From Candidatus Euphemobacter frigidus (GTDB lineage Bacteria; Auribacterota; Erginobacteria; Erginobacterales; Erginobacteraceae): a stretch of 64,000 bases of DNA. How positions within the stretch are numbered: position 1 is the stretch's first letter; every line of letters starts with the position of its first letter. The translations under genes were made by a program, and so were the position numbers. Shown here one piece after another: positions 5,250 to 63,599 of this stretch. The notes beneath the pieces were generated by a model. The model searched no databases and had not been told where the DNA came from. It saw nothing but the letters and a program-made list of their open reading frames with translations. Location of the stretch: NCBI GenBank assembly GCA_030765805.1, contig JAVCDH010000091.1, positions 19,047-83,046 on the forward strand. The letters run 5' to 3'.

Positions 5250-6175
5250 AGAGAAGAGGATTTTCCATGTTAGGGTTGGCCGGCTTGCTTTTCTTCGTCA
5301 TCATCGGTCCGGCCGCAGCCCGCACTATTCCCCGGATTACGGCCACGCTCGATAAAGACCGGGTAGCAGTCGGAGACACCATTCTCCTCACGATATCCGC
5401 CGCCTGGGCCGGTGAGGCCTCCGAGTTTGTATTTCTCCCTCCCCAGCCTCCGGAGTTCCGGGGTCTGGAAATGACCGGCTCCGCCCAGAAAAGCGTGGTC
5501 TATCGAACCGATGGGAAGCTGCACCAGGTTTGGGAATACCTCTTTACCCTTAAAGGGGAAGATAAGGGCACCGCCCGGGTAGGGGTGGTACGGATTCTCT
5601 ACCACCGTCACGGAGAGGAAGAGGTACACTCGTTAACTACCGAACCACTGGAGGTAACGATCTTCTCGGGAGGAGTGGCCTTCTTCTCATCGATCGGTAG
5701 TGCTCTTCTCACGATCGGAGTGGTAATGGTGGCAGTTATCATCATCGTTGTCTATGTGAGGTGGACCATCCGACGCTATAAAAATAAATCGAACGAAGTC
5801 ATCGCGGATTACGTTAAAAATCTGGAAGCGGAGAGTCTCAAGGAATTAGACCACCTCCGGAAGCTTAAAGTCCAGGGGAATATCGACGGATATCTGGAGG
5901 GGATCTGGAAGATACTGGCCGACTACCTGGAGAAGAAATATACCATAACCATCTCGCCCGAAAGCTTTCGTGAGGTGCTGGAGGGAGAGAGGGCATCGGC
6001 CCTCTCGGAAGAAGCGGCAGCGGAACTGGCCCGGATTCTGAAGGTGTTGGAAGAAAGCCGGTTTGGAAGCTACCGGGCGGAGAACCGGGGACCGGATGAT
6101 ATCTTAAAACGAGTCTATTCATTCATTGAATCACAACAATCGCAAACCAAAGGAGAACGGAATTATGAGCATTGA
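5246..6175 (+). CDS. membrane protein with BatD-like N-terminal domain and DUF4381-like C-terminal domain (Bat-cluster accessory paralogue)
   Basis: Signal peptide, beta-rich N-domain resembling the BatD N-terminus (RITATLDKDRVAVGDTILLTISA), one TM helix, cytoplasmic helical C-domain. Same architecture as the gene at 8703-9647. GTG start overlaps the htrA stop (GTGA). Confidence 0.5.
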   Translation: MKRRGFSMLGLAGLLFFVIIGPAAARTIPRITATLDKDRVAVGDTILLTISAAWAGEASEFVFLPPQPPEFRGLEMTGSAQKSVVYRTDGKLHQVWEYLFTLKGEDKGTARVGVVRILYHRHGEEEVHSLTTEPLEVTIFSGGVAFFSSIGSALLTIGVVMVAVIIIVVYVRWTIRRYKNKSNEVIADYVKNLEAESLKELDHLRKLKVQGNIDGYLEGIWKILADYLEKKYTITISPESFREVLEGERASALSEEAAAELARILKVLEESRFGSYRAENRGPDDILKRVYSFIESQQSQTKGERNYEH

Positions 6176-7154
6176 CATTCAGGAGATCAACGAGAGAGTT
6201 AAGGTTGCCGGCGAGTTTGTTGAGAAGATTCGGGCGGAGATCGGCAAGGTCATCGTAGGACAGACTTACCTGGTCGACCGGCTCTTGCTGGGTTTACTGG
6301 CCAACGGGCATATTCTAATTGAAGGTGTTCCCGGTCTGGCCAAGAGCATGTCGGTCCGGGTCCTGGCCCGGGCCATCAATACCTCTTATCAGAGGATCCA
6401 ATTCACGCCCGATCTTCTGCCGGCAGACCTCCTCGGCACCCTGGTCTACAACCCGAAGACCGGCGAGTTCACCACCAAGAAAGGCCCGATCTTTTCTAAT
6501 ATCATTCTGGCCGATGAGATCAATCGGGCCCCGGCCAAGGTCCAGTCGGCGCTGCTGGAAGCGATGCAGGAACGCCAGGTCACTATCGGCCGGGAGACCT
6601 TTCCCCTCTCCGAGCCGTTCATGGTCATGGCTACCCAGAACCCGATCGAGCAGGAAGGGACCTATCCACTCCCGGAGGCTCAGGTGGACCGCTTCATGCT
6701 GAAGCTGGTTCTGGATTACCCTGATAAGAAGGAAGAGAAGGCGATCATGGACCGGATGGCGGTAACCAACTATGAACTCCAGGTTCAGCCGGTTGTCGAA
6801 CCGGAGGAGATTATCAAGGCCCGCTCGGTCGTGGACATGATCTATATCGACGAAAAAGTCAAAGATTACATCCTCGATCTGGTCTTCGCCTCCCGGGAGC
6901 CGGAACAGTACGGGCTTAAGATAGGGGATTTTATCCAGTACGGGGCTTCCCCCCGGGCTACCATCTATCTAACAGTTGCTTCCAAGGCCTACGCTTTTAT
7001 CAAAGGTAGAGGGTATGTAACTCCCCAGGATGTCAAGACGATCGGTCAGGATGTCCTCCGGCACCGGGTGATCGTCAGCTACGAGGCGGAAGCGGAAGAT
7101 CTCACCTCCGAGGACCTGATCCGGAAGATCTTTGATCAGGTGGAAGTGCCTTGA
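6165..7154 (+). CDS. moxR: MoxR-family AAA+ ATPase
   Basis: Walker A GHILIEGVPGLAKS, and VLARAINTSYQRIQFTPDLLPADLLG, ILADEINRAPAKVQSALLEAMQE. SD aaggag upstream of the ATG at 6165 (the tool start at 6126 is a TTG). Confidence 0.9.
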   Translation: MSIDIQEINERVKVAGEFVEKIRAEIGKVIVGQTYLVDRLLLGLLANGHILIEGVPGLAKSMSVRVLARAINTSYQRIQFTPDLLPADLLGTLVYNPKTGEFTTKKGPIFSNIILADEINRAPAKVQSALLEAMQERQVTIGRETFPLSEPFMVMATQNPIEQEGTYPLPEAQVDRFMLKLVLDYPDKKEEKAIMDRMAVTNYELQVQPVVEPEEIIKARSVVDMIYIDEKVKDYILDLVFASREPEQYGLKIGDFIQYGASPRATIYLTVASKAYAFIKGRGYVTPQDVKTIGQDVLRHRVIVSYEAEAEDLTSEDLIRKIFDQVEVP

Positions 7155-7155
7155 T

Positions 7156-7311
7156 GGTGACTGGGGACTGGTGACTGGTGACTGGGGATTGGTGACTGGG
7201 GACTGGGGACTGGTGACTGGGGACTGGGGATTGGTGACTGGGGACTGGGGACTGGTGACTGGGGACTGGGGATTGGTGACTGGGGACTGGGGATTGGTGA
7301 CTGGGGACTGG
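7156..7311. repeat. tandem heptamer array (units GTGACTG / GGGACTG / GGGATTG, about 22 copies)
   Basis: Directly visible periodicity of 7 nt. It begins 2 nt after the moxR stop codon. In one frame it reads as the repeated peptide GDWGLVT (tool ORF 7132-7329), which is not a real gene. Confidence 0.9.
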
Positions 7312-7368
7312 ATAGCAAAGTTATACTAGTTTTTGACTAGTCGGATACAAAAGCAAAGGAAAACCTAA

Positions 7369-7734
7369 GTGGTTGGTATGAGGTCACATGAGGATTTAGA
7401 GGTTTGGAAGAGATCAATTGATTTAACTGTTCGAATTTATCGAATTACCGCCGGATTTCCTGATTCAGAAAAATTTGGTTTATCTTCTCAACTGCGGAGA
7501 GCAACAGTCTCTGTCAGCAGCAATATCGCAGAAGGAGCAGCGCAAGGAACTACAAAATCTTTTATAAATTTTCTGTATATTTCTCGAGGATCTATATCTG
7601 AAGTAGGCACCCAAGTTGAGATAGCAAGGAGATTACGGCTCATTGATACCGAAGTACATAAAGAATTGAAGGGAGAGATTATTATTATTGGAAAGATGCT
7701 TACTAATTTAATCAAACGTTTGAAACAAAGTTGA
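7369..7734 (+). CDS. four-helix-bundle protein (23S rRNA intervening-sequence protein / Avd-like family)
   Basis: 121 aa. Family-typical motifs EDLEVWKRSIDLTVRIYRIT, FGLSSQLRRATVSVSSNIAEG, FLYISRGSISEV. The local sequence is markedly AT-rich compared with its flanks. Confidence 0.8.
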   Translation: MVGMRSHEDLEVWKRSIDLTVRIYRITAGFPDSEKFGLSSQLRRATVSVSSNIAEGAAQGTTKSFINFLYISRGSISEVGTQVEIARRLRLIDTEVHKELKGEIIIIGKMLTNLIKRLKQS

Positions 7735-7780
7735 TATCTAAGATTTTGCGAATAAGTTGATTTATACTTTTTGTTGAGAA

Positions 7781-7818
7781 ACCAGTCCCCAGTCACCAAT
7801 CACCAGTCCCCAGTCACT
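7781..7818. repeat. heptamer array, reverse-complement orientation of the 7156-7311 array (CCCCAGT / CACCAGT / CACCAAT units)
   Basis: accagtccccagtcaccaatcaccagtccccagtcact. Together with 7156-7311 it forms an inverted pair bracketing the four-helix-bundle gene. Confidence 0.85.
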
Positions 7819-7827
7819 ATACATACC

Positions 7828-8706
7828 ATGCTTCCCAAAGAAATAATCAAGAAGATCCAGCGGATCCGGATCCGGACCAACCGGATAGTCAGCGATGTCT
7901 TCTCTGGAGAGTACCAGAGCGTCTTTAAAGGGCGGGGGATGGAGTTTGACGAGGTGCGGGAGTACCAGCCCGGCGACGAGGTTCGGGATATCGACTGGAA
8001 CGTGACCGCCCGCTATGGGCGCCCGTTTATAAAGAAGTATGTGGAAGAGCGGGAACTCACCGTTATGCTTCTGGTGGACGCCAGCGCGAGCAGCCGGTTC
8101 GGAACCCGACAAGAGTTCAAAAGTGAACTGGCGGCGGAGCTCTGCGCGGTCCTGGCCTTCTCCGCGATCCGGAACAAGGACAAGGTGGGGTTGATTATCT
8201 TCACCGACCGGATCGAGAAGTTTGTCCCCCCGGCCAAGGGAAGCCGCCATGTCCTGCGGGTGATCAGGGAGCTTCTCTACTTCAAACCGGAGGGCGAGGG
8301 AACCGATATCGAGCTGGCCCTCGGCTACCTGAACCGGGTCACCCACCGCCGGACCGTCACCTTCCTGGTCTCGGATTTCAAGACCGCCGGCTACGACAAA
8401 GCCCTGAAGATCGCCAATAAACGCCATGATATTATCTCAGTCATGATCAGCGATCCCCGGGAGATGGAACTGCCCCCGGTCGGGCTGATCCGTCTCCGGG
8501 ACGCGGAGAGCGGGGAAGAGATCCTGGTTGACAGCCGGGATGAGAGGACCCGTCACCTTTACCGGGAAAGAGGCCGGGAAGTAGAAGATGAGATTCTCAG
8601 GATCTTCCGATCAACCGACGTGGATTGCATTCGGGTCAGCACCGATCGCCCATACGTACAGGCCCTGATGCGGTTCTTCCACCGCCGGGAGCGGAGGATG
8701 CATTGA
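7828..8706 (+). CDS. DUF58 domain protein (MoxR-partner, vWA-like)
   Basis: Classic DUF58 motifs GEYQSVFKGRGMEFDEVREYQPGDEVRDIDWNVTAR and MLLVDASASSRFG. ATG at 7828 preferred; the tool start at 7771 is a TTG and would translate the heptamer array. Confidence 0.85.
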   Translation: MLPKEIIKKIQRIRIRTNRIVSDVFSGEYQSVFKGRGMEFDEVREYQPGDEVRDIDWNVTARYGRPFIKKYVEERELTVMLLVDASASSRFGTRQEFKSELAAELCAVLAFSAIRNKDKVGLIIFTDRIEKFVPPAKGSRHVLRVIRELLYFKPEGEGTDIELALGYLNRVTHRRTVTFLVSDFKTAGYDKALKIANKRHDIISVMISDPREMELPPVGLIRLRDAESGEEILVDSRDERTRHLYRERGREVEDEILRIFRSTDVDCIRVSTDRPYVQALMRFFHRRERRMH

Positions 8707-10641: not shown

Positions 10642-11672
10642 GGTTCGGCGCTCTTAACCTGATCTGGCTCTTCCTGCTCCTCCCGATCTTGGCTATTCTC
10701 TTCCGTTGTGCATGGCTTCGCAAACGGCAGGCCGAGAATCTGTTCGCCGATCGTCCCCTCTGGGAACGGTTGAGGATCGGGGTGAGTGACTTCAAGGTCA
10801 GCGCCCGGCCGGTCTTGATCCTGGCGGTTACGGCGCTTCTGCTCTTCTCCCTTCTCCAGCCCCGGTGGGGCTACCACTGGGAGGACGTTACCAGGCTCGG
10901 AATCGACCTGATTGTCGCGGTGGATACTTCCAGGAGTATGCTGGCTGATGACGTCAAACCGAACCGCCTGGCCCTGGCCCGACGTGAAATTGAGGACCTG
11001 GCCCACCTTTTGAAAGGGGACCGGATCGGCTTGATCGCCTTCTCCGGGAGCGCATTTACGCTTTGTCCCCTCACCCTCGATTACGGCGCTTTCCGGATGT
11101 TTGTTAACGATCTTTCCGTAACCACCATCCCCCGGGGAGGGACCGATATTTCCGCGGCCATCTTGAAGGCGATAGAGGCCTTTGGCGAGGGCCCGGGCAA
11201 GCACAAGGCACTCCTGATTATATCCGACGGCGAGAACCTGGCGGGCGATTACCAGGCGGCCGCCGAGGAGGCGAAGAAGAAAGGGGTAAAGATCTTCACG
11301 ATCGGGATCGGGAGTCCCGAGGGGATACCGATAAAGCTGACCACCCCGGAAGGGACGTCATATCTCAAGGACCGGGAAGGGAATATCGTGGTCAGCAAGC
11401 TGGACGAAGCGGTACTTCAGAAGATCGCGGTGGAGACCGGGGGGGCCTATCACCGGGCGACCACCTCCGGCCTGGAGCTCGAGTTGATATATCGGGACCG
11501 GATTGCCAGGATGGACAAGAAAGAACTGGAAAGCACCCGGAAGAAGGTATATGAGCACCGTTTCCAGTGGCCCCTGGCCGTTGCCCTCCTTCTCCTGGTG
11601 CTGGAATCGATTATGGGGGAGAGAAAGTGGAAGGGGTTGAGATGGTGGTTTTTATTGAGGGAAAAAGAATGA
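10638..11672 (+). CDS. batB: von Willebrand factor A domain protein BatB-like
   Basis: ATGA overlap with batA. vWA motifs DLIVAVDTSRSM, LIISDGENLAG, IFTIGIGS; C-terminal TM helix. Confidence 0.85.
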   Translation: MRFGALNLIWLFLLLPILAILFRCAWLRKRQAENLFADRPLWERLRIGVSDFKVSARPVLILAVTALLLFSLLQPRWGYHWEDVTRLGIDLIVAVDTSRSMLADDVKPNRLALARREIEDLAHLLKGDRIGLIAFSGSAFTLCPLTLDYGAFRMFVNDLSVTTIPRGGTDISAAILKAIEAFGEGPGKHKALLIISDGENLAGDYQAAAEEAKKKGVKIFTIGIGSPEGIPIKLTTPEGTSYLKDREGNIVVSKLDEAVLQKIAVETGGAYHRATTSGLELELIYRDRIARMDKKELESTRKKVYEHRFQWPLAVALLLLVLESIMGERKWKGLRWWFLLREKE

Positions 11673-12466
11673 ACGTCCAACGTCCAACGATTTTGAACAT
11701 CGAACGTCGAACATCCAACATCCAACATCGAACCCTATATCTTCTGATTGCCGCTCTTGTGCTGGTTAATCTCGGCCTGGGGAATCCGGGGGGTTCCCTG
11801 GTTAAAGAGGGAAATCGGCTTTTCAAGGAGGGAAAGTATGACCAGGCCCTGACCAAGTATAACGAGGCCCAGTTAGAGCTTCCCGATTCGTCCGATATTT
11901 ATTACAATATAGGTGATGTTCAGTACAAGAAGAGTGACTATGAAAAAGCGGCTTCGCTCTTCCAGAAAGCGATAGAATCCAAAAATCGTACGCTTAACGC
12001 CCGGTCCGGATACAACCTTGGCAATACTCTCTTCCGGGAGGGAAACTTTGATGGTGCCGCCTCTGCCTATAAGGCATCTCTTAAACTGAACCCGGAGGAT
12101 TCGGACGCGAAGTATAACTACGAACTTGCCCGCTGGAAACAGAAAGAACAGGAACAACAACAGCAGCAGGAACAGAAGCAGGAACAGAAGCAGAAGGATC
12201 AGAAGGAGAAAGAGAAAGAGGAACAGGAGCAGGAAGATAAAGATCAGAAGGACCAACAGCAGGAACGGAAGGAAGAAGAGGAGCAGCAGCCTCAACAGCA
12301 AGATCAGGAACAGAATCAAGAGCAGCAGCAGCAGCAGCCCCAGGAGATGAACCAGGAAGACGTGGAGAGACTCCTTGACGCCATGCTCTCCGAAGAAGAG
12401 GATCAACGGGGGGAGATGATGGAACAGAGGGAGGGGGAGACGCCGGAGGTTATCAAGGACTGGTAA
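11669..12466 (+). CDS. batC: TPR-repeat protein BatC-like with Gln/Glu/Lys-rich low-complexity C-terminal region
   Basis: ATGA overlap with batB. TPR units (GNRLFKEGKYDQALTKYNEAQ...), followed by a long QEQKQEQK tract. The N-terminal 21 codons are encoded by a heptamer repeat array. Confidence 0.7.
   Translation: MNVQRPTILNIERRTSNIQHRTLYLLIAALVLVNLGLGNPGGSLVKEGNRLFKEGKYDQALTKYNEAQLELPDSSDIYYNIGDVQYKKSDYEKAASLFQKAIESKNRTLNARSGYNLGNTLFREGNFDGAASAYKASLKLNPEDSDAKYNYELARWKQKEQEQQQQQEQKQEQKQKDQKEKEKEEQEQEDKDQKDQQQERKEEEEQQPQQQDQEQNQEQQQQQPQEMNQEDVERLLDAMLSEEEDQRGEMMEQREGETPEVIKDW
11672..11742. repeat. heptamer tandem array (GAACGTC / CAACGTC / ATCGAAC / ATCCAAC units) inside the 5' end of batC
   Basis: aacgtccaacgtccaacgattttgaacatcgaacgtcgaacatccaacatccaacatcgaacc. 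It is in frame, with a total length that is a multiple of 3, directly after the batC ATG. Confidence 0.8.
12120..12400. repeat. low-complexity CAG/GAA/AAG-rich coding tract (QEQKQ... in BatC)
   Basis: Visible triplet-repeat-like composition (cagcagcag, gaacagaag) that generates spurious antisense ORFs. Confidence 0.6.
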
Positions 12467-12501: not shown

Positions 12502-14364
12502 ATGAACCACAGATTACTATATTTTTTAATCGTATTCTTTATCTTAACTTCCGCGGTTAGTCGGGCTGATGAGGTCTCTTTTTCGGCGGCGGTTAACCGG
12601 AATAAGATCTCCCTTTCGGACCAACTTATCTATACACTGACTATCGAAGGAGCGCGTGATGGCCAACCGGTCCTCCCCGATATCCCGGATTTCAAGTTCC
12701 TTGGTAGATCGGTCAGCACCCAGTTCTCTTTAATCAACAATCAGACCCGGGTCAGTAAGAGTATTGACTATACCCTGATGCCTATCTCGGCGGGAACATT
12801 CACCATCCCTTCCGCGCGTCTGGCGCACGGGGGTAAGAGCTATACCACCCGTCCGATCAAGGTCATAGTCGTAAAGAGCTCCTTGCCGCCCTCGGCGATT
12901 GCCGTCTCCCGGCCGCAGGATCAAACCACAGATAGTTCCGGCCGGAGAAAGGAGGCGAGCCCTCCGCCGGAATCAGGCAGTCCACTCTTCGTCAGGACAG
13001 AGGTTGATAAGAAAGAAGCCTATGTTAATGAACAGATAACATTGACCTTCAAGCTCTTTTTTCGGGGACTGCGGATCGCTAACCTTAAATATTCACCGCC
13101 GCCCACGATCGGGTTCGTGGAAGAGAACCTTGACGATCAGAAGAGTTACAGCAAGGTTGTGGGAGGGGTGCGGTATGATGTGGTGGAGCTGTCGAAAGCG
13201 ATCTTCCCCATAAGTTCGGGAGAAGTGACGATCGGCCCGGCGGAACTCAGAGGCGATATTATCGTACCCCGTCGCTCCCGAAGTGGGAGTCTATTTGATG
13301 ACTTCTTCAGAGATCCCTTTGGTGAGCGGCAGCCGTTCGCTCTTCGTTCAAAGCCGATCCAATTGATAATTAAACCCCTCTCGCGGGAAGGCAGGCCCGG
13401 TGATTTTAAGGGGGCGGTAGGTGAATTCGGATTTGAGCTCTCCGCCAAACCGACCATTGTCAAGGTTGGCGAGCCGATCACAGTCACGATGAAGGTCACC
13501 GGGGCGGGCAATCTGGATACGGTCACCATCCCGGAGATCCCCTGCGGGGAGGAATTCAAGACATATGTGCCCGAGGTGGAGACGAGAAGAAAAGTTATTG
13601 GCGCGCGGGTAGGCGGAGAGAAGATCTTCAAGCAGGTTATTATCCCGCTCTCGGTCGATCCGAAGGAGATACCCCCTGTATCATTCAGCTACTTCAATCC
13701 CGCGTCCGGCGCGTATCGGACGATAACGGCTAAGACGATCCCGATCACGGTTGAGGCCGCGCCGGATCAGGGGCCGCTCTCTCTGGTGGAAAGTATGGCC
13801 TCCGGTGCCGGGAGGGAGCGGATCCGAATTCTAAAGAAGGACATTCTATATATTAAGGATAATCCCGGGCACCTGACACCTGCCGGCCGATTCTATTATC
13901 AGAGGCCCCTGTACTGGACGTTTCCGGTGATCTTCCTGGCGCTTCTCATTTCAGTCTGGGGTGTCCAGTCACGCAGAGAGAAACTCCGGTCCGACGTCGC
14001 CTACGCCCGGCAGGTGGGCGCCTCCCGGTCCGCGCGCAAGCGGTTCAAAACAGCCCGGGCTCATCTCAGGGCCGGCGACGCGGAGAAATATTACGGTGAA
14101 ATTCACCGGGCGTTTAACCGCTATCTGGGGGATAAGTTCGGCCTTCCGTCCGGAGCGGTCTCAAGCATGGTGGTGAGCGAAAAGTTATCGGCGGCGGACG
14201 TGGGATCGGAGATGATAAATGAGATTGAGTCCTGTTTCGCGGCTTTTGACCTGGCTCGCTTTGCCGGGTCCTCGGCGGATAAAAAGGAGATGGAATCTTT
14301 TCTCCGCCGGGTGGAGAAACTGATCGGCGATCTGGAGAAGGTTAAAATAAAATACGATGAATAA
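12502..14364 (+). CDS. batD: BatD-like oxygen-tolerance protein
   Basis: 620 aa, signal peptide, repeated beta-rich domains, TM helix near residue 470 (YWTFPVIFLALLISVWGV), cytoplasmic helical tail. Conserved position in Bat operon order. Confidence 0.8.
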   Translation: MNHRLLYFLIVFFILTSAVSRADEVSFSAAVNRNKISLSDQLIYTLTIEGARDGQPVLPDIPDFKFLGRSVSTQFSLINNQTRVSKSIDYTLMPISAGTFTIPSARLAHGGKSYTTRPIKVIVVKSSLPPSAIAVSRPQDQTTDSSGRRKEASPPPESGSPLFVRTEVDKKEAYVNEQITLTFKLFFRGLRIANLKYSPPPTIGFVEENLDDQKSYSKVVGGVRYDVVELSKAIFPISSGEVTIGPAELRGDIIVPRRSRSGSLFDDFFRDPFGERQPFALRSKPIQLIIKPLSREGRPGDFKGAVGEFGFELSAKPTIVKVGEPITVTMKVTGAGNLDTVTIPEIPCGEEFKTYVPEVETRRKVIGARVGGEKIFKQVIIPLSVDPKEIPPVSFSYFNPASGAYRTITAKTIPITVEAAPDQGPLSLVESMASGAGRERIRILKKDILYIKDNPGHLTPAGRFYYQRPLYWTFPVIFLALLISVWGVQSRREKLRSDVAYARQVGASRSARKRFKTARAHLRAGDAEKYYGEIHRAFNRYLGDKFGLPSGAVSSMVVSEKLSAADVGSEMINEIESCFAAFDLARFAGSSADKKEMESFLRRVEKLIGDLEKVKIKYDE

Positions 14365-21461: not shown

Positions 21462-21467
21462 ATAAAT

Positions 21468-21570
21468 TAGCTCCGCCCCTGGCGGGGCAAATTTGGGTAA
21501 TAGGGATTAGGTAATAGGGATTGGTTTACCTAATTCCTATAAAATGTTGCCTATTCAATAGTTTTATTTA
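21468..21570. repeat. ~100-nt dispersed element, copy A (GC hairpin + GGGATTAGG/GGGAATAGG short repeats + conserved tail)
   Basis: aattagctccg cccctggcgggg caaatttggg taatagggattagg taatagggattgg tttacctaattcctataaa atgttgcctattcaatagtttt. About 85% identical to the reverse complement of 37921-38020. Confidence 0.8.
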
Positions 21571-21609
21571 AATTCCGATACAGGAACTTAGCTCCCTCCT
21601 GTCGCAAAT

Positions 21610-27080: not shown

Positions 27081-27692
27081 TTACTGATCATCAATAACAT
27101 CTGGCGAACTGCCACCCGGGCCGGCTTTTAGTTCAGCTTTGCGGGCCAGGAGGTGCTTCACATAGACGGAAGTGTCGCCGCCCATCTTCAGCCGGGAGCG
27201 GGCCAGCTTCTTCTCGACTTCCTGGAGGGACATCAGGCGAATCTTCTTGTTCGGCGTGGCTTCCGGCTCCTCTTCCACCTCTTCTCCACCTTCCTCGGAC
27301 GGAGCAACTTCCTCTTCTCCTGCTGCCACGGCAGTTGTTTCTGCCGCTGGGGCTGCTTCTTCCTTCGCCGGAGCTGCTTCTTCCTTCGCCGGGGCCGCTT
27401 CTTCCTTCGCTGGGGCTGTTTCTTCCCCCGCCGGGGCCGTTTCTTCTTCCGCCGGGGCCGTTTCTTCTTCCGCCGGGGCCGCTTCTTCCTTCGCCGGGGC
27501 CGCTTCTTCTTCCGCCCGGGTTGCTTCTTCCTTCGCCGGGGCTTCTTCTTCCTTCGCCGGGGCTTCTTCTTCCTTCGCCGGGGCTTCTTCTTCCTTCGGG
27601 GCTGCTTCTTCAACTACTGGAGCTTCTTTATCAGTCGGCGTAGTTTGAGTTTGATCAGTGGTCTCTTCCATCTCTTTCTTTTCTTTGGTCAT
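27081..27692 (-). CDS. acidic Ala/Pro/Glu-rich repeat protein with conserved C-terminal domain
   Basis: GGAG SD 8 nt upstream of the ATG. About 14 tandem heptad repeats (EEAPAKE / EEAAPAK), then the C-terminal segment KKIRLMSLQEVEKKLARSRLKMGGDTSVYVKHLLARKAELKAG. The antisense frames (RRGRFF..., AGAASSF...) are rejected. Confidence 0.5.
   Translation of the reverse strand: MTKEKKEMEETTDQTQTTPTDKEAPVVEEAAPKEEEAPAKEEEAPAKEEEAPAKEEATRAEEEAAPAKEEAAPAEEETAPAEEETAPAGEETAPAKEEAAPAKEEAAPAKEEAAPAAETTAVAAGEEEVAPSEEGGEEVEEEPEATPNKKIRLMSLQEVEKKLARSRLKMGGDTSVYVKHLLARKAELKAGPGGSSPDVIDDQ
27290..27620. repeat. 21-bp tandem repeat array (coding, (EEAAPAK)n)
   Basis: Repeating unit ttcttccttcgccggggccgc and variants are directly visible. 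Confidence 0.85.
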
Positions 27693-31626: not shown

Positions 31627-31658
31627 TAAAATTTTTCTCCGAAAAATTTTAACGTAAT

Positions 31659-31724
31659 CAGTCACCAGTCACTATTCACCAGTCACTATTCACCAGTCCC
31701 CAGTCCCCAGTCACCAGTCACCAT
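31659..31724. repeat. heptamer array (CAGTCAC / CAGTCCC / TATTCAC units; same family as 7156-7311, reverse orientation)
   Basis: cagtcaccagtcactattcaccagtcactattcaccagtccccagtccccagtcaccagtcacca. The last unit contains the TGA stop (31718-31720) of the downstream dehydrogenase gene. Confidence 0.85.
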
Positions 31725-34793: not shown

Positions 34794-34909
34794 GGATGGG
34801 GAATGGGGAATAGGGAATGGGGAATAGGGAATGGGGAATAGGAATGGAGAATGGGGAATAGATAACGAGGTTTCCCCCCATTCCCTACTCCCTATTCCCC
34901 ATTCCCCAA
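34794..34909. repeat. palindromic heptamer array (GGGAATG / GGGAATA units and their reverse complement CCCTATT / CCCCATT)
   Basis: Left arm 34794-34860, 14-nt loop, right arm 34875-34909. The right arm encodes the last codons (LGNGE) and the TAG stop of the TPR lipoprotein gene. Confidence 0.85.
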
Positions 34910-37883: not shown

Positions 37884-37920
37884 AATGACATCTCCAGGTT
37901 TCCGCTTCGTAATTTGAATA

Positions 37921-38020
37921 AAACTATTGAATAGGCAACATCGTATAGAAATTAGGTGAACCACTCCCCATTCCCTAATCCCTATTCCCCAAATTAGCCC
38001 CGCCAGGGTCGGGCTAATTT
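37921..38020. repeat. ~100-nt dispersed element, copy B (inverted relative to copy A at 21468-21570)
   Basis: aaactattgaataggcaacat...ccactccccattccctaatccctattcccc aaattagccccgccagggtcgggctaa. The reverse complement aligns along its length with 21468-21570 (shared atgttgcctattcaatagttt, GGGATTAGG repeats, ccctggcgggg hairpin). Confidence 0.8.
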
Positions 38021-45110: not shown

Positions 45111-45256
45111 CAGGTTGTCAGGTTCACGGTTCACGGTTTGTTGCCTTGCGCACTTCATGTGCCAATTGCCAAACCTCAATATCTTCAGACCGTTCAATCT
45201 TTATCACTCTCTAACCGTGAACCTTTGAACCGTGAACCCCTGAACCCCTGAACCGG
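45111..45256. repeat. inverted heptamer arrays (GGTTCAC units / GTGAACC units) flanking a ~70-nt core
   Basis: Left arm caggttgtcaggttcacggttcacggttt, right arm aaccgtgaacctttgaaccgtgaacccctgaacccctgaaccgg. Lies between the GT4 start and the GT2 stop. Confidence 0.8.
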
Positions 45257-47757: not shown

Positions 47758-49449
47758 TTACTTACAAAATGACGGCAGTTCTTCCTTAGCTTTCAAAAAC
47801 ACAAATGAATCAATATATAAACTTCCTCCATGCGGATAAACATATTTAAACTTGACTGATTTAGGTCTGATCAAACCAGGAAACTGAAAACAAGAAAAAT
47901 AACGGCAAGCATTATAACTGTCCCCCTGATATTGTATAACCCGTTTATCAAATATCGAGGCCGCATGATGGTGCCGCTGCTCTTCCGGAACAACCTCCAG
48001 ATGTTGATCGGAAGTGTCTAAACCCGCCTTCAGGGAGAAGACGTACCTATCACCGGATACAGAATCTACCTGAATTTCGGCTACTGATTCTCCCTGGAAA
48101 AAGGAAAGCCCATAACGAGTATAGGAAACAATTCCCAAACCCGAGGCTATAATGGAATCCTCCACATCTATTGTTAACTCGGCGTTCCCGGCCAGGACAA
48201 ACTGTTTATTTATGGCTAAAATATTTTCTCCGAAAATAGTGGTTAACCGATCACTTTGAGTAAATCCTTCTCTTACCCGAGACTTGATTTGGATTGATTG
48301 AATATTTAACCAACAATCCTTGGAACCGATGATTCTCAAAAGCCGATTGTCAGATCTCGAAAAAGCTACCTGGAGATTGTACTTGGTGGGATGCATATCC
48401 CAGGGCAGATCGCGGCAAATTTTCAATTTAACCACTTCGCCCAGGCCTACCTGATCCGGCAAGTTTATTTCTTCCATGATGCTATGGCCGGAGGAAGAAA
48501 TCAATCTTATCATTGCTTTAATCTGGTTGTCTTGAGTAGTGGACCTGGTTGAATATAGCGTAACCCTGAATTGACTATCTTCCGTCCAATTGTTTCTGAC
48601 AAGATCATACCCTCGCAATGATATTTCATTGCTGAAATTGACCGAAGTTTTATACCGCGGGATCAAAGCTCCGGCCTTAACCCGGGCCTGATTTGCTCTG
48701 GATATAGCACCTTTTTGAAGGTATATTCTTTCCAGAGCTTGCCAGCCTCCCAGATGAACCGGTGATTCTTCCACCAGTTTCTCGTAATATGCCTGGGCCC
48801 GCACCAGTTCCCCCAATTTTTCACAGGCCCGGGCTAAATAAAACCGGGTATCTAATCGCGGAGAGTTGTTTTGCAGTGCCTTTTGCAACCGGGATTCAGC
48901 CTCATTATACTTCCCCAGTTGATAGAGGGCTCTCCCCCACCAATAATAGGCCTGGTCCGGGTTTTTTCCTTCCCTCGCTAAATCCTCCGCGATTACAGCT
49001 ACTTTTGACCATTCGTTCCAGTTCTGAAAATATTGAAGCAACTCCTGGCCCAATCTCTGATCACAGCCCGATTTCAGATATGCATTGAATAAAACACGGC
49101 TTACTTGACTTCTGAAACCCAATTTTTCGAGCTCTTTCCCAACTCGAAACAAGTCCCCGGGATCCAGATTAAACCATACCCGGTAATAATTGGGTCGATG
49201 CCAGGCAGCCAGAGCTAATTCATGCTGAGAGGCTTCCAGTTGATCATTTTGCTCTAAATAAACTGATTTGGTGTAATGCCAACCAAATCCGAAATAATCA
49301 TAGATAAACTCAAAAGGATGGGGTAAACCGGTCCTTAGTAACGGTGGTTGGTATGTCAAATAACTGATAAGAAGAATTGCTCCTAGGGCGACAATCAACA
49401 GGAAAAAAATATATCTTCTCCTACCCAGCTTTTTTTCCCGTGATTTCAT
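47758..49449 (-). CDS. membrane-anchored TPR-like protein (hypothetical), first gene of the low-GC island
   Basis: Probable start MKSREKKLG... (ATG near 49449) with an N-terminal TM anchor. TPR-like stretch AYYWWGRALYQLGKYNEAESRLQKAL...FYLARACEKLGELVRAQAYYEKL. Beta-rich C-terminal half. Confidence 0.45.
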   Translation of the reverse strand: MKSREKKLGRRRYIFFLLIVALGAILLISYLTYQPPLLRTGLPHPFEFIYDYFGFGWHYTKSVYLEQNDQLEASQHELALAAWHRPNYYRVWFNLDPGDLFRVGKELEKLGFRSQVSRVLFNAYLKSGCDQRLGQELLQYFQNWNEWSKVAVIAEDLAREGKNPDQAYYWWGRALYQLGKYNEAESRLQKALQNNSPRLDTRFYLARACEKLGELVRAQAYYEKLVEESPVHLGGWQALERIYLQKGAISRANQARVKAGALIPRYKTSVNFSNEISLRGYDLVRNNWTEDSQFRVTLYSTRSTTQDNQIKAMIRLISSSGHSIMEEINLPDQVGLGEVVKLKICRDLPWDMHPTKYNLQVAFSRSDNRLLRIIGSKDCWLNIQSIQIKSRVREGFTQSDRLTTIFGENILAINKQFVLAGNAELTIDVEDSIIASGLGIVSYTRYGLSFFQGESVAEIQVDSVSGDRYVFSLKAGLDTSDQHLEVVPEEQRHHHAASIFDKRVIQYQGDSYNACRYFSCFQFPGLIRPKSVKFKYVYPHGGSLYIDSFVFLKAKEELPSFCK

Positions 49450-50470
49450 ATCGCCCTTCAGAACATATATTGCAAATAGAAATACTTCTCCTGTTTTTTC
49501 TGATTTGTTTCCTGAACATTTGATACTTATTATTTTTCCATATAGAACCCAAGTTCTCTTCAAACACATTGCCCATAATATAACGGGAATAAAGGTCGTA
49601 GCAGCAGGGAATGACACTCCCATCTGAATTGATTACTGTCCGCTGATATACCCATTTGCAATAGTTCTTGATTTTTCCTTTGAGAGTATAGGTTCCATCC
49701 GGCTTCAACCGGTAACGACTCAAGGATAAATCAGTTGGCAAAAATTTTTCCGCCTGTTTCTGAAATTCAGGATCATTGGCATCGATACCCGCTGTTTTTT
49801 CGGAGTATATATCTATCCCTAATTGGTGGGATAAATTTTTTATATGACTTCGCTGATGCTCATTCTGTTTCATTATTATAAACTGCAACTCAAGAACCGG
49901 GGTTTTTGTCTTTAATTTCCGCTTAGCTGCAACTATCAATTGTATGCCCTTGATAATCTTCTCAAAATTGCTATTCTTCCTGTAAATGCTTAATGTCTCT
50001 TGATCAGCCCCATCCAGACAAATAATCAAGTGATGAAGTCCACTCTTAACAACCCTGATTGCGAAATCTGAAGAATCAAAGAACTCACCGTTGGTGCTGG
50101 TTACTACATATATCCCAGAAGAAGTGGCGTATTTTATCATTCTCAGACACTCGGGGTTGATAAAAGGTTCCCCATAATTCCAGAGTACAATATTTTCAAT
50201 GTATTTACGGGATTGATCAACTATATGTTTAAACTCCTGAAATTTCAATAAACGGGGAGGACGGTTAAGTTTGCCCGCTCCGGTTGGACAGGTGGGACAT
50301 TGCAAATTGCAAATATTGGCGGGCTCTATCATTAAAGATATGGGAAACGGAGGAAGAAGATGCTTGAATCCCGCTATTCTCAATAACTGATATAATACCA
50401 CCATAATCTTACCTTGCTTGATCTGGCTCAAGGCTCTTTTAAATAATAATAATTTGATCCTTTTAGACAT
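49421..50470 (-). CDS. radical SAM enzyme with C-terminal SPASM/twitch-like Cys cluster
   Basis: CxxxCxxC = CNLQCPTCP near the N-terminus. C-terminal CCYDLY...CNICSEG. ATG at 50470 or 50494. Confidence 0.8.
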   Translation of the reverse strand: MSKRIKLLLFKRALSQIKQGKIMVVLYQLLRIAGFKHLLPPFPISLMIEPANICNLQCPTCPTGAGKLNRPPRLLKFQEFKHIVDQSRKYIENIVLWNYGEPFINPECLRMIKYATSSGIYVVTSTNGEFFDSSDFAIRVVKSGLHHLIICLDGADQETLSIYRKNSNFEKIIKGIQLIVAAKRKLKTKTPVLELQFIIMKQNEHQRSHIKNLSHQLGIDIYSEKTAGIDANDPEFQKQAEKFLPTDLSLSRYRLKPDGTYTLKGKIKNYCKWVYQRTVINSDGSVIPCCYDLYSRYIMGNVFEENLGSIWKNNKYQMFRKQIRKNRRSISICNICSEGRYEITGKKAG

Positions 50471-51551
50471 TTTTAAATAGCCTTTCGTAGGCATCAGTTA
50501 CCTTATCCCAGGTATAATATTTCGCGATTCTTTCCTTGGCTTTTTCTCCATATTCTTTAACTATAGAAGGGTTATCAATAAGATATTGCAACTTTGTTTT
50601 CAGGTCATTTTTATCTTTTAACCGGAACAGCATGCAAGCAGAACCGGCAGTCTCCCGGTTCTGCGGATTATCGCTGACCAACACGCATTTCCCATAGCCC
50701 ATTGCCTCCAATAATGCTGGATGAGTTCCTCCTACCTCACTGGCGCGAACACTGAAATAGCAGTCGTCAAGAAGCTGGCGGTAATCTTCCCCATAGATAG
50801 CCCCTAAGAACAAAATCCGATTATCCTGGATCTCTTTCAATTTATCTATATACTTTTTCCCATACGGCGCATCCCCAAGAAAAACTAGTTTAAGATCGGT
50901 TTTCAAATTGATAAATGCTTTCTGAACCAGGTGCGCGTTATTTTCCGGTTCCAGGCGTCCAACAAAAAGTATATATCGATTTTTTTCCAGCTTGTATTTG
51001 TTTACTTTACCATCCCGGACCACTTCTCCCAGATCGCCTCCGTAAGCGATGTATGTTGATGCTTTGTTGTACCGGTCTCGGTAATACTTCTGAATGAATA
51101 AAGAATCGGAAACAATAGCATCAGGTAAAAAAGTGACCAACCATTCCGATATCATATATACCAATTTGCCCAGTCGATTCCATTTTTTTCGCTGCCTCTC
51201 CAGACCATCCACGTTTATAATCACTTTCTGTCCTCGTAATCTGGGAATAAAACTGCACAAAGCATTTACTCCATTACAAATTAAAACAATCTGATAATCA
51301 TGAAACAGACAATGAAATATTGAAATAAATGTATGAACGACCGTATCCAGATATTTATGCTTGATCGTAGGAAGAACTATTAACCGAACTCCCTTATATT
51401 CCTTGAGACGGCTGGAGATATAATGAGAACGGCAATAAACAGTGACCTGATGCCCCCGATCTACCAGCCGAACAGCCAGCTGTTCGGCGAAAGTTTCAAA
51501 TCCCCCATAATTAGACGGGATTCCTCTAGTTCCCAGAATTGCTATTTTCAT
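50463..51551 (-). CDS. glycosyltransferase family 4 (DUF1972-type N-terminus)
   Basis: MKIAILGTRGIPSNYGGFETFAEQLAVRLVDRGHQVTVYCRS; C-terminal LEAMGYGKCVLVSD. Confidence 0.8.
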   Translation of the reverse strand: MKIAILGTRGIPSNYGGFETFAEQLAVRLVDRGHQVTVYCRSHYISSRLKEYKGVRLIVLPTIKHKYLDTVVHTFISIFHCLFHDYQIVLICNGVNALCSFIPRLRGQKVIINVDGLERQRKKWNRLGKLVYMISEWLVTFLPDAIVSDSLFIQKYYRDRYNKASTYIAYGGDLGEVVRDGKVNKYKLEKNRYILFVGRLEPENNAHLVQKAFINLKTDLKLVFLGDAPYGKKYIDKLKEIQDNRILFLGAIYGEDYRQLLDDCYFSVRASEVGGTHPALLEAMGYGKCVLVSDNPQNRETAGSACMLFRLKDKNDLKTKLQYLIDNPSIVKEYGEKAKERIAKYYTWDKVTDAYERLFKNV

Positions 51552-52764
51552 CTTTTTTTAATGCACCGAAAATAAGATCTATCATTAACTCCGCCTTGTT
51601 TTTCCAAGAGCAGTTCTCCGGCAGTTGTTCTCTTAATCTGTCAGGCGATAATCTTTTGGTTTCAATCAGTTGCAGATATTTTTTGATTCCAGCTAAAAAT
51701 TTTTCGGAATCGGAAGCTATCTGTATAACATCTTGGAATTTTTTTGCCCCGGTAATATTACTGGTAACCACCGGCTTTCCGGCAGCCAGATACTCATACA
51801 TTTTTAAAGAATCCCCTTTAATAACATATTTATCTTCATAATGAGGTATAATTCCAATATCGAAATTAGCCAGATAGAAAGGCAATAAACTATATGGTTT
51901 ATCGCCCAAATAATAAAAATTGGGTAATTTAAATAGTGGAACTATCCATTTTTGATTAATTGCCTGCCCAATAAAAACGAAACTAACGTGCTTTAATTTG
52001 CGGCAAAGAAAGGAAATTAATTCGATATTAAGCCGTTTGCTCATTTTTCCCACATAACCAACAACCGGTTTTTTAATAGCTTTCATATCTTCCGGCAATG
52101 GGGAAGAATCAAGCTGGAAAAAGTCTTTATCTACACCGTTGTTAATTAGGACCGGCTTATCTTTATTCCGGGTTAAGAAATCTTTCATCGGTTCCGAATT
52201 TACAAAGATTAAATCAGCCCGTTCTTTGATTGTTGTATAACCTTTTTTTATAAACTCTCGCCGATCTCTGATTTCCGGGTGAAGAAGCCAATTATCAATG
52301 GCGTCGAAAACAATTAATTTTTCCCCTAATTGTCCGATCACCGGTGTTGCCATCGGGGTCCATAGGAACAGGATTGGAGATACCATATCCAGTTCTTTCA
52401 TAGCTCTTTTTGCTATAGAAAGAATTGACTTGCGGGTAAAGATAAAATGCCACCAATCCCTTCCCATAAAAACAGGTGATAATATACGGGGTGAAAATAT
52501 ATCCAGAACATAGGTTTTTGTAGCGACTTTCCCCAATCTAGAAAAGAAACCAATTTTCCTGGAACTAAGAACGTTCTTCACTTTCCAAGATTTTTTTTTC
52601 AATACCATTTCCGGCAAACTAGTGGGACGGTTAATTACTAATATTTTACCTGTCCGGGCACTCTTCTCAAATGCCTTCATCAGGTGACCATCCCGAGTTC
52701 GAAAGCTTTCTTCCTCACCTTTCTTCCAATCATGCATGGGAAAAATAATAAGATCGATCTTCAC
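51526..52764 (-). CDS. glycosyltransferase (GT-B, family 1/4-like)
   Basis: C-terminal EX7E-like MYEYLAAGKPVVTSN. GTG start at 52764, with an alternative ATG at 52737. Confidence 0.65.
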   Translation of the reverse strand: MKIDLIIFPMHDWKKGEEESFRTRDGHLMKAFEKSARTGKILVINRPTSLPEMVLKKKSWKVKNVLSSRKIGFFSRLGKVATKTYVLDIFSPRILSPVFMGRDWWHFIFTRKSILSIAKRAMKELDMVSPILFLWTPMATPVIGQLGEKLIVFDAIDNWLLHPEIRDRREFIKKGYTTIKERADLIFVNSEPMKDFLTRNKDKPVLINNGVDKDFFQLDSSPLPEDMKAIKKPVVGYVGKMSKRLNIELISFLCRKLKHVSFVFIGQAINQKWIVPLFKLPNFYYLGDKPYSLLPFYLANFDIGIIPHYEDKYVIKGDSLKMYEYLAAGKPVVTSNITGAKKFQDVIQIASDSEKFLAGIKKYLQLIETKRLSPDRLREQLPENCSWKNKAELMIDLIFGALKKDENSNSGN

Positions 52765-52784
52765 AATAAAACTATCCTTTATCC

Positions 52785-54230: not shown

Positions 54231-54916
54231 AGAAAAATAAACTGATAGCAATAGTATAATGGCAAAAAATGATCGATCAAGTTAAGCCCTATGGCCTTAG
54301 CCGTTTGTACGGGAGAAAGAGATAAAAACTTTCTTTCTTTTCCTTTATTAAACCAATTTTCCGAGTGAATCGCAGTAATCACCAGGCCTTCTTTTCTCAG
54401 GAGTTGTTTCCATTCCTCAAGAGAAAGCAGATGTTCATTGATTTCCTGTTGTTCAGTCCCGGAGAATCTTCTTAACTTAAAATATAAGAAGTTTCGATTG
54501 GGAACCATAATAAAGAAAAGAGCATCCTGTGCGGCCACGCGCTTTATATCCTGGAGACTTTTTTCCATATTGAGAAAATGTTCCAGCGTGCCGAGACAAA
54601 AAATATAATCGAAGTAATTATCCTTAAAAGGAAGATTCTCCCCCTGGCTAACTAAAAATACTGTTTCTGGGGAAACCACCTGAGCGATCTTGATTGCTTC
54701 TAATGATATATCAATCCCAAAAGTTATAAGCTTTCTCTGAATCGAAGCTTTAGCCATATGCCCGGTGCCACAGCCGATATCCAAGAGTTTCTGGCCGGGC
54801 TTTACCGGTAAATAATTAAGAAAATGCGGATAAGTGTGGTAAGGACGAAAAAGATCTTCTCCTGAGGTACGGTACTTATGATTATACCAATCTTTAATTT
54901 GTTTCACTGTTGTCAT
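54215..54916 (-). CDS. class I SAM-dependent methyltransferase
   Basis: Motif I LLDIGCGTGHMA; 233 aa. Confidence 0.8.
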   Translation of the reverse strand: MTTVKQIKDWYNHKYRTSGEDLFRPYHTYPHFLNYLPVKPGQKLLDIGCGTGHMAKASIQRKLITFGIDISLEAIKIAQVVSPETVFLVSQGENLPFKDNYFDYIFCLGTLEHFLNMEKSLQDIKRVAAQDALFFIMVPNRNFLYFKLRRFSGTEQQEINEHLLSLEEWKQLLRKEGLVITAIHSENWFNKGKERKFLSLSPVQTAKAIGLNLIDHFLPLYYCYQFIFLCRQC

Positions 54917-55004
54917 AATAAGAAGATTGCATTAACAACAAATTTAAGCTGTAATAATCTCATCCTCTACAAGCATTTTCATATATTAAATCGAGAATAC
55001 TAAT

Positions 55005-56564: not shown

Positions 56565-56674
56565 CCTTTAATAATTTGTCTTCCCAAAAAATTTGACAAA
56601 TTATAAGCATTGTACTATTATTACCCGTTGATTATGATTAATTAAAATAATGTCGCATCAAGGTGAGTAAAATT

Positions 56675-58799: not shown

Positions 58800-58958
58800 G
58801 ATAATATTATATAGCTTCTTCTTGCCTACTTGTATCACAAAATATTAAAAAATTTGTATTGATTTTTAAAATAAACAATTCTACATTGCAAATAGAGCTA
58901 ATTTTATACTTCTTTCAAGATCTATTCTAAACAGGCCTAATCCCTTAAATAAACCCTT

Positions 58959-63548: not shown

Positions 63549-63599
63549 TATACGAATTTAATTCAAACTAAAGTTGAATAGTAAATAGTAGAATTGTTT

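Follow-up and report, generated by a model that had tools for sequence, protein, structure and literature searches.

Inverted heptanucleotide arrays around a PF05635 gene between moxR and DUF58 in Candidatus Euphemobacter frigidus: a probable intervening-sequence-type cassette in an operon spacer

Introduction

Why should the space behind a gene in a bacterial operon be filled by a long run of tandem heptanucleotides, and why should the same heptamer return as its reverse complement just ahead of the next gene? The question is raised by positions 7155–7311 of a 64,000-nucleotide stretch of Candidatus Euphemobacter frigidus (GCA_030765805.1, contig JAVCDH010000091.1), the whole of which is termed the window. 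An earlier note on this DNA described arrays of tandem heptamers, grouped into families A to D, and overlooked the open reading frame (ORF) that lies between the two family-A arrays at 7155–7311 and 7781–7817. That ORF matches the 23S rRNA IVP family (PF05635). We propose, as the likely explanation, that 7155–7311 is the G-rich 5' arm of a cassette of approximately 660 bp that is of the rRNA intervening sequence (IVS) type, and that the other arrays of the window are ORF-less members of a class resembling the short tandemly repeated repetitive (STRR) sequences. Three long-standing orphans overlap physically, namely the STRR heptamers, known since 1990, the IVP family, for which structures have been solved, and the rRNA IVSs. 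The 23S rRNA IVSs of Coxiella, Leptospira and Salmonella contain the same ORF family between terminal inverted repeats.

A PF05635 gene between inverted arrays

The cassette (7155–7817) consists of an IVP gene bracketed by inverted family-A arrays and lies between moxR and a DUF58 gene, with all of its parts described here on the forward strand. The 5' arm (7155–7311) starts at the base directly after the moxR stop codon (TGA, 7152–7154) and comprises 22.4 G-rich heptamers with 95% matches according to Tandem Repeats Finder (TRF), arranged with a 21-nt super-period (TGGGGAC-TGGGGAT-TGGTGAC); it was also recovered in the inverted-repeat pairs. A leader containing two ACTAGT palindromes (7312–7377), in which a promoter scan called no sigma-70-like promoter, leads to the start codon of the IVP gene (7378–7734, 118 aa), and a trailer (7735–7780) connects the IVP stop codon to the 3' arm (7781–7817). 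The latter comprises 5.3 C-rich units by TRF, the reverse complement of the 5' arm, and stops 10 nt upstream of the DUF58 ATG (7828). The flanking host genes, moxR (AAA_3 ATPase, 6165–7154, from Pfam and the gene call in L001, an NCBI contig otherwise identical to the window) and the DUF58/vWA gene (7828–8706, from Pfam), are part of a Bat-type operon of moxR, DUF58, BatA, BatB, a TPR BatC-like gene and BatD. The earlier note had pointed out inverted pairs, and these are present at 7155/7781, 34796–34908 and 45111–45254; the first pair has this geometry because both of its arrays are arms of the PF05635 cassette.

The protein encoded between the arms, a type also named S23p or four-helix-bundle protein, matches Pfam PF05635 (23S_rRNA_IVP) with E=4.5e-37 and 127 bits (cut-off 33.8) over profile positions 1–105 of 106, and the NCBIfam four-helix-bundle model TIGR02436 with E=1e-36 and 125.5 bits (cut-off 24). 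By these profile matches ORF 7378–7734 is classed as a full-length member of the PF05635/TIGR02436 family, above the curated cut-offs. The closest solved structure is PDB 2GSC, the XCC0516 protein of Xanthomonas campestris (E=6e-28), and the identical IVP protein is present on five public contigs. Weak matches to Pfam bAvd and NCBIfam DivGenRetAVD reflect the homologous four-helix-bundle pentamer fold of Avd from diversity-generating retroelements (DGRs). Unlike Avd, however, the IVP scores just 26.4 bits against the DivGenRetAVD cut-off of 80, has moxR and DUF58 as its neighbors with no reverse transcriptase, template or variable repeat nearby, and gave no phage homologs. There was also no PADLOC match, and membership of either a defence system or a DGR was rejected on the grounds of the PADLOC, Avd and phage results.

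The two arms are complementary (93–97%) across 36–40 nt in an inverted-repeat search, and the minimum free energy fold of 7140–7840 pairs them around the IVP ORF (z=-4.1), so that an S23p-family ORF lies inside terminal inverted repeats that are able to form a long stem. In Coxiella burnetii the 23S rRNA IVS has a 28-bp terminal inverted-repeat stem, which RNase III cuts at the first repeat, and contains two to three tandem GACAGAT heptamers just upstream of the S23p ORF, the copy number of which varies with the strain (Warrier et al., 2016, PMC4990558). The cassette resembles the IVSs of Coxiella and Leptospira in having the same ORF family in the loop of a terminal stem (28 bp in Coxiella versus 36–40 bp here), tandem heptamers of variable copy number beside the ORF, a sporadic distribution, and an ORF that can decay. 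It differs from them in that it occupies a spacer between protein genes of an mRNA operon rather than helix 9, 25 or 45 of 23S rRNA, that its arms are made up wholly of tandem heptamers, with up to 22 units, and that the host is a PVC/Auribacterota-like metagenome-assembled genome (MAG). There is no rRNA in the window, and an Rfam search of the cassette gave nothing even at E<=1. The cassette is, in our assessment, an IVS-type element in an operon spacer instead of in rRNA.

Presence and absence of the cassette in relatives

The moxR–DUF58 junction was compared in the window, the sequence of which matches NCBI assembly GCA_030765385.1, and in the related loci L039, L040, L041/L042 and L043–46 (L-numbers denote compared loci). 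The site is empty in L039 (MoxR 94% and DUF58 89% identical) and L040 (88% and 85%), where 23–25 nt separate the two genes and the spacer sequence, CCTTAA-TTTTTTTCCGGAGGAAAAAAATTAA-ATG, is a small palindrome centered on a Shine-Dalgarno (SD) sequence. The site is occupied in L041/L042 (81% and 82%) by an 18-unit array (TGGGGAG/TGGGCAG/TAGGCAG), a 120-aa IVP gene and a reverse-complement array, and in L043–46 (88% and 79%) by arrays around an internally deleted IVP pseudogene, of which N- and C-terminal pieces are recognizable, together with a nested array hairpin. All occupied alleles share the left junction, CCTTGA followed directly by TGGGG, and the moxR stop codon is TGA in these and TAA in the empty alleles. 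The GGAGG SD spacer of the empty sites is gone from the occupied alleles and the 3' arm ends 0–12 nt from the DUF58 ATG; that is, the cassette replaces the spacer and does not split it. Palindromic spacers of the replaced type, TTAA-T(5-7)-C(C)GGAG(G)-A(5-7)-TTAA-ATG with the SD sequence in the loop, recur at tight junctions of this lineage (window 31627–31655, L039 2974–3000, L040 9976–10000).

Compared with close relatives, therefore, the gene and its two arms share one pattern of presence and absence and the cassette is an insertion/deletion unit with the sporadic distribution of IVSs. The unit sequence differs between alleles on both arms (GGGGACT versus GGGGAGT/GGGCAGT, that is, ACT versus AGT/CAG at the same unit positions), and each allele's own arms stay complementary despite this drift between lineages. 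The L041 IVP is 59% identical to that of the window, closer than any of 486 database matches (all <=56%), and because of this we favor a single old cassette that would have diverged faster than the host genes and later been lost or undergone allele replacement. The alternative, repeated site-specific gain at the moxR–DUF58 junction, is not preferred. Mobility by way of near-identical IVP copies elsewhere was considered and rejected, as there are none between 56% and 100% identity.

Generality of the arrangement

A scan with one genome per species gave 33 distant PF05635 loci, which belong to Bacteroidota, Planctomycetota, Kiritimatiellota, Beta- and Gammaproteobacteria, Marinimicrobia, Gemmatimonadota and other groups. 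In about 30 of these the gene is closely flanked by short-period arrays, mostly of period 7; Flavobacterium has a period of 8, Steroidobacteraceae and one Chitinophaga a period of 9, and Gemmatimonadota periods of 15–16. Downstream units are, as a rule, reverse complements of those upstream. With the ends of other ORFs in the same loci as the null, an array lies within 60 nt of the gene end at 44 of 63 IVP ends versus 12 of 78 others (odds ratio 12.7, Fisher p=4e-11). Among 72,556 plasmids searched, 26 of the 33 IVP matches are cyanobacterial (15 in Nostoc, 4 in Calothrix, and Anabaena and others). All six cyanobacterial plasmid IVP genes that were inspected are flanked by heptamer arrays and four have clean inverted pairs, the units being, for example, GGTGACA/GGGAACA across 273 nt versus CTGTCAC in Anabaena sp. 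90, AGGGTGT versus CTACACC in Calothrix, and AGTAGGG versus TCCCTAC in N. edaphicum. Another cassette (L163) has family-A arms (GACTGGT and ACCAGTC). In Xanthomonas, a supplementary table lists a GGGAATC repeat (#15) that is six nt from bccP (XCC0517) and overlaps the start of XCC0516 (Rehm et al., 2015, PMC4692102), the gene of the 2GSC structure.

The cyanobacterial plasmid genes also lie within operons, either as cas6–IVP–cas4 or between the genes of ribonucleotide reductase subunits. The former is seen in the type I-D CRISPR operons of Anabaena sp. 90 pANA02 (L167, 1129–1971) and Pseudanabaena pPg_01 (L171, 1264–1963). "23S rRNA IVP" has been given as a CRISPR-linked domain (Altae-Tran et al., 2023, PMC10910872), and the insertion between cas6 and cas4 may explain that listing as guilt by association from a cassette that landed in the operon. 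Cassettes inside operons (bat, cas, acc, nrd) can create spurious links of this kind. A Chitinophaga MAG and an Aequorivita MAG each contain a pair of IVP genes no more than 1.5 kb apart (L020, 1171–1554 and 2394–2756; L027, 2–325 and 1498–1851), so cassettes can cluster. Within the lineage of the window, a 261-aa protein (L174, from the L040 genome, 1043–1828, minus strand) has a faint PF05635 match fused to a Zn_ribbon_Top1 domain and may represent a longer IVP-domain architecture.

The IVP gene is thus found between inverted arrays in Planctomycetota, Bacteroidota, Proteobacteria, Gemmatimonadota, Cyanobacteriota and a PVC-like genome, with the handedness of the arrays conserved as described below. 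An incomplete literature search, which may have missed an earlier description, found no paper that links PF05635 genes in general to flanking tandem arrays, and the two studies of heptamer arrays used as comparators here draw no connection between arrays and PF05635 genes (PMC4692102; MacGregor, 2015, PMC4679880); nor do Warrier et al. extend the link beyond the Coxiella case. Both the cross-phylum association and its handedness appear to be undescribed in the searchable literature, and they make the old STRR and IVP puzzles approachable by experiment.

Handedness and the possible role of the IVP

Read on the IVP sense strand, 20 of 22 IVP loci have a G-rich upstream arm and 22 of 24 a C-rich downstream arm. 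When all adjacent inverted heptamer pairs are considered, including ORF-less hairpins with loops of 10–250 nt, 25 are G-first and 4 are C-first (p=1e-4), and the window's own hairpins follow the same rule. Since the arms are reverse complements of each other, "G-rich arm first" reads the same on both strands, and the handedness is therefore an intrinsic chirality of the element that is independent of gene direction. Several origins are possible. If the C-rich, G-poor arm were transcribed first, it would present an exposed rut site until its partner followed, so that the order might serve to avoid Rho. Translation could also be responsible, in that G/T/A-rich units would provide stop codons in three frames after the upstream ORF and C-rich units would lack spurious SD sequences or start codons ahead of the next one; a stop codon is contained in 17 of 24 upstream and 10 of 24 downstream units. 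Finally, the handedness could result from a polar mechanism of synthesis or insertion.

The last of these raises the question of whether the IVP acts on the arrays. REPIN-RAYT systems, reportedly described by Bertels and Rainey in 2011, consist of short intergenic palindromes and a single protein gene (RAYT) flanked by the same repeats. By analogy, the IVP might be a trans-acting factor that binds, maintains or spreads the arrays, with the IVP cassettes as the autonomous form and the ORF-less hairpins and solo arrays, which greatly outnumber them, as non-autonomous derivatives or products; such an activity might depend on a polymerase or reverse transcriptase as its partner, in the way that Avd works in DGRs. 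We consider this unlikely, although several observations fit. Nearly every IVP gene lies among arrays whose units belong to families of the same host genome, and family A itself both forms the cassette arms and recurs as a solo array at a distance of 24 kb. Genomes that hold an IVP have a raised array background (15% of other ORF ends, with almost none in an E. coli control), and plasmid-borne IVPs (26 of 33 cyanobacterial) are concentrated in the STRR-rich Nostocales. The strict G-first handedness fits a polar process of synthesis or insertion, and the IVP family is homologous to Avd, a nucleic-acid-binding cofactor of reverse transcriptase. Unit similarity also tracks IVP protein similarity across phyla, but the Spearman coefficient (-0.28) comes from non-independent pairs and may reflect a shared preference for G-rich units.

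On the other side, the IVP has no enzymatic domain or catalytic fold and there is no reverse transcriptase or recombinase beside the cassettes examined, array-rich contigs totaling more than 400 kb have essentially no IVP gene, and the S23p of Coxiella is apparently untranslated and decaying (PMC4990558). While the window resembles REPIN-RAYT and Correia systems in its many short intergenic elements at operon junctions, the gene within the cassette is a PF05635 four-helix bundle with no transposase or nuclease fold rather than an IS200/IS605-like (RAYT) transposase gene, the arms are tandem arrays and not unique palindromes, and there is no evidence of transposition or target-site duplications for the window cassette. 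In its broadest form the idea would be that PF05635 IVP genes and short-period inverted arrays are one widespread system, of which the STRRs, the Xanthomonas GGGAATC pairs, rRNA IVSs and the arrays of the window are manifestations, and in which a pentameric IVP recognizes, maintains or helps to propagate the arrays, the G-first polarity reflecting the mechanism. We regard this too as improbable, but if true, a single explanation would cover both the 35-year-old STRR puzzle and the orphan IVP family.

A proposed mechanism and the evidence against it

We propose instead that the cassette acts in the manner of an IVS. Specifically, by architectural homology with 23S rRNA IVSs, the two arms would pair in the polycistronic transcript to form a 36–40-bp duplex that loops out the IVP ORF and brings the moxR stop codon beside the DUF58 start codon, and this duplex would probably be a substrate for RNase III, again by analogy with rRNA IVSs. 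The arrays would change length by slipped-strand or unequal exchange in steps of 7 and 21 nt. The inverted pairs at 34796–34908 and 45111–45254, the solo arrays at 31659–31723 and 11672–11733, and the short heptamer runs in a composite element described below are, on this reading, ORF-less members of the same STRR-like class.

A number of results weigh against this interpretation. A metagenome scan with the family-A 16-mer GGTGACTGGGGACTGG, which was meant to recover contigs of the same species, gave 119 loci, none of which matched the window, and an IVP gene is present in just one of the 119 family-A-like loci (L163), with a hidden Markov model that recovers every known IVP gene. Of the first 80 of these loci, 52 have true heptamer arrays at the match, and on several contigs arrays of many unit families fill nearly every intergenic region, with up to 20 in 15 kb. 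The association is therefore one-way, and it is reflected at the junction between the IDH and malic-enzyme genes. The window has a family-A array at this site, L174 has two family-D arrays, each right after a TGA, L173 and L175 are without an array, and there is no IVP gene at this junction in any relative. Solo arrays, from this comparison, turn over quickly between relatives, they do so here without an IVP, and the cassette leaves the origin of the array class unexplained. The notion that solo arrays are cassette remnants as a general rule was rejected, since this junction has different families or none and never an IVP, whereas the decaying cassette in L043–46 favors the remnant idea at that site. 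The junction in L174 (5850–6010) has a further feature in that the last ~45 nt of the IDH gene and the family-D array are tandemly duplicated with a 15-codon mini-ORF between the arrays, a snapshot of arrays and gene ends duplicating together.

Further difficulties concern the cassette itself. Neither a target-site duplication nor a recombinase was found for it, and the phylogeny demands repeated loss or repeated gain at one site. There is no RNA-level signature in the arm mismatches, which on the IVP sense strand are G.U-compatible in 16 cases and A.C in 17, and because of this balance a homogenization of the arms at the DNA level (gene conversion or hairpin repair) is equally compatible with the data. 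Cleavage by RNase III is extrapolated from rRNA IVSs to an mRNA context. An ungapped stem scoring >=16 is present in just 19 of 37 loci, and the comparison of duplex energy between matched and mismatched arms is noisy (medians -69 versus -44.5 kcal/mol, with a wide spread); the energy lies beyond the 1st percentile in just 5 of 32 loci, and the enrichment test at gene ends was used instead. Lastly, the 22-versus-7-unit difference in array length discussed next may be an assembly collapse, given that a short read does not span the array and that four metagenome contigs are broken within it.

Array length and phase variation

The upstream array of the cassette has 22.4 units in the window and 7.4 in L001, a difference of exactly 105 nt (15 units, or 5 x 21). 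The earlier note had suggested that copy numbers be compared to detect length polymorphism, and the difference between two otherwise identical assemblies does fit slippage, with the caveat of collapse just given. It had also implied a phase-variable role, as would be expected if the arrays were ordinary slipped-strand simple sequence repeats serving as contingency switches in which 7-nt changes in copy number toggle adjacent genes. Heptamers are indeed not multiples of three, copy numbers differ among relatives at homologous junctions, and those of the Coxiella heptamer vary among strains (PMC4990558). Nevertheless, nearly all arrays, including that at 7155–7311, are located after stop codons or in untranslated spacers, and phase variation is unsupported because a 7-nt change there shifts no reading frame and no promoter spacer; promoter scans placed no array between -35 and -10 elements. 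Phase switching would also not explain the inverted pairing, the handedness or the enclosed IVP gene, the 105-nt difference may be an assembly artefact, and in Xanthomonas the repeat-bearing regions are more, not less, conserved (Rehm et al., PMC4692102). As a general explanation it is thus very improbable.

Family D is the sole array that could possibly act as a phase switch. It starts at the ATGA that forms the BatB stop and the BatC-like start, its units contain no stop codon in any frame, and it is translated as residues 2–22 of the BatC-like protein, where the gain or loss of one unit would bring a TGA close by into frame. A family-D array is present at the homologous junction in L040 as well (14117–14156), but within a 3' extension of BatB. 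It should be noted that most IVP-bearing metagenome contigs (L002–L005, L042 and most others) are mostly 1–2 kb in length and start or end inside the flanking arrays. Arrays break short-read assemblies, and IVP loci are therefore under-represented or collapsed in MAGs.

The heptamer arrays of the window and their class

The six or more heptamer loci of the earlier note were each recovered by TRF at coordinates that proved good to a few bases, and the TRF units bear out their locus-specific sequences; the units had in part been spelled with eight letters, the true unit being 7 nt. In total the window has about 11 period-7 arrays, nine merged and two that TRF called at periods 14/21 and 8/15, which are mainly intergenic, whereas 40 second-order Markov simulations gave 1.68 on average. 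For periods 8–12 the window matches the expectation from the same simulations, and a 50-kb stretch of E. coli K-12, analyzed as a control, gave a single short period-7 row. The unit of family A is that of STRR1, GGGGACT being the reverse complement of AGTCCCC, a rotation of CCCCAGT (consensus CCCCA(A/G)T), as had been recognized; families B–D do not fit this consensus. The view of the earlier note that the setting is not cyanobacterial is also supported. The host, which is not a heterocystous cyanobacterium, is concluded to be non-cyanobacterial because the nearest relatives of the flanking proteins are from the PVC group or Aureabacteria or Auribacterota MAGs.

The comparators are the cyanobacterial STRRs, GGGAATC of Xanthomonas, GGGGA(C/T)T of Nostoc and TAACTGA of Beggiatoaceae (Rehm et al., 2015, PMC4692102; MacGregor, 2015, PMC4679880), with 70–75 convergent (inverted) repeat pairs in Xanthomonas (PMC4692102). 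The arrays of the window are like those of cyanobacteria, Xanthomonas and Beggiatoaceae in being intergenic heptamers near ORF ends, with frequent inverted pairs and length variation between relatives, and like the STRR and Xanthomonas arrays the G-rich strand is the coding strand downstream of ORFs and family A is the STRR1 unit. They differ from those studied previously in the non-cyanobacterial host and in having several unit families within 64 kb. We conclude that these repeats are of the already known STRR-like class and that their host in this case is not a cyanobacterium.

The proposal that arrays abut or overlap start and stop codons is borne out at several loci besides the cassette. 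The solo family-A array at 31659–31723 (9.3 units by TRF, G-rich on the minus strand, which is the coding strand) is bordered on one side by the IDH ORF, which stops at the TGA of a GGTGACT unit, and on the other by the malic-enzyme gene's palindromic SD spacer. The family-D arrays are direct (11672–11689, AACGTCC x2.6; 11695–11733, GAACATC/GAACGTC x5.6; plus strand). Across all loci (493 arrays), the starts of arrays are most frequent between -3 and +10 nt relative to ORF stops, with 7–9 per nt compared with ~1 farther away, a peak that is in part trivial because G-rich units carry stop codons and end any ORF that enters them. Family D, however, is free of stop codons and also starts exactly at TGA codons, in both the window and the L040 genome. 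We suggest that arrays are found at gene boundaries since they would be tolerated there alone, that they would expand until they reach constrained sequence, and that the stop codons which G-rich units contain in all three frames would cause ORFs to end at the array edge.

Two inverted pairs in the window lack an ORF. In the family-B pair, 9.3 units of GGGGAAT/AGGGAAT (34796–34859) are separated by a 16-nt loop from 4.7 reverse-complement units (34876–34908), within which a TPR ORF terminates; read on the minus strand, the pair follows the TPR gene and is itself followed by a T-rich run. The family-C pair (45111–45254), located between a GT2 stop codon (45265) and a GT4 gene, has GGTTCAC x2.6–4 (arm 45121–45138), a loop of ~75 nt and GTGAACC-type units x4.8 (arm 45213–45254). 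Such hairpins could be structural or regulatory elements that are independent of the IVP, such as terminators, stabilizers of mRNA 3' ends or operon insulators of the REP/BIME or Correia kind, and G-rich arrays could form G-quadruplexes. The Correia/NEMIS elements, studied by De Gregorio and colleagues in 2002–2003, reportedly form hairpins that RNase III accepts as substrates upon co-transcription. This alternative is possible but doubtful as a general account. The 34796–34908 hairpin is very stable (RNA fold -67.4 kcal/mol, z=-6.0) and has the T-rich run on the coding strand, and 45111–45254 (fold z=-3.0) lies between a stop codon and the promoter-like region of the next gene. However, a consensus terminator scan calls none of the hairpins, 34796–34908 being missed by this simple scan because its loop exceeds the scanner limit, and intrinsic terminators are kept solely as a rival explanation. 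GGGG/GGG tracts occur at least four times in families A and B, with 3–4-nt loops, and G-quadruplex folding of similar units was shown in vitro (Rehm et al., PMC4692102), but G-tracts are absent from families C and D and from many IVP arms at other loci (ATAGTTG, AAAGCAT, GTGAATT, AAAAGCT), which led us to reject the G-quadruplex as a common principle. A structural role would also leave the ~70% of IVP gene ends that bear arrays unexplained. For individual hairpins, a terminator, insulator or G-quadruplex role is plausible.

Family-B heptamers are also part of a composite intergenic element that the earlier note had recognized and had put at ~100 nt; the element stands, at about 125 nt and in two copies. 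These are located at 21463–21590 (plus strand) and 37890–38012 (minus strand), that is, in opposite orientations, and are ~88% identical. Each consists, in order, of a GC hairpin (GCYCCGCCCCTGGCGGGGC), an A/T run, four family-B or family-B-like heptamers (21496–21522 on the plus strand by TRF; 37963–37990 on the minus strand by sequence comparison) and a conserved block that includes a sigma-70-like TTGCCT-N17-(T)AAATT. Copy 2 is flanked by the AhpC stop codon and by a 59-aa ORF that has a GGAG ribosome-binding site. Rfam gave just meaningless miRNA matches to the element (E >= 0.18).

Other features of the window

Over the last 16 kb of the window (~48000–64000) the GC content falls from ~0.55 to ~0.39, and this stretch may be a horizontally acquired island; its sole heptamer array is a chance-level match at 50299–50314. 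A 21-nt tandem repeat (x12.9, a 7-aa coding repeat) is located at 27345–27611 inside ORF 27081–27692 (minus strand), the product of which has no Pfam match, and a similar 21-nt coding repeat (x11.4) is present in the relative L174 at 11501–11739.

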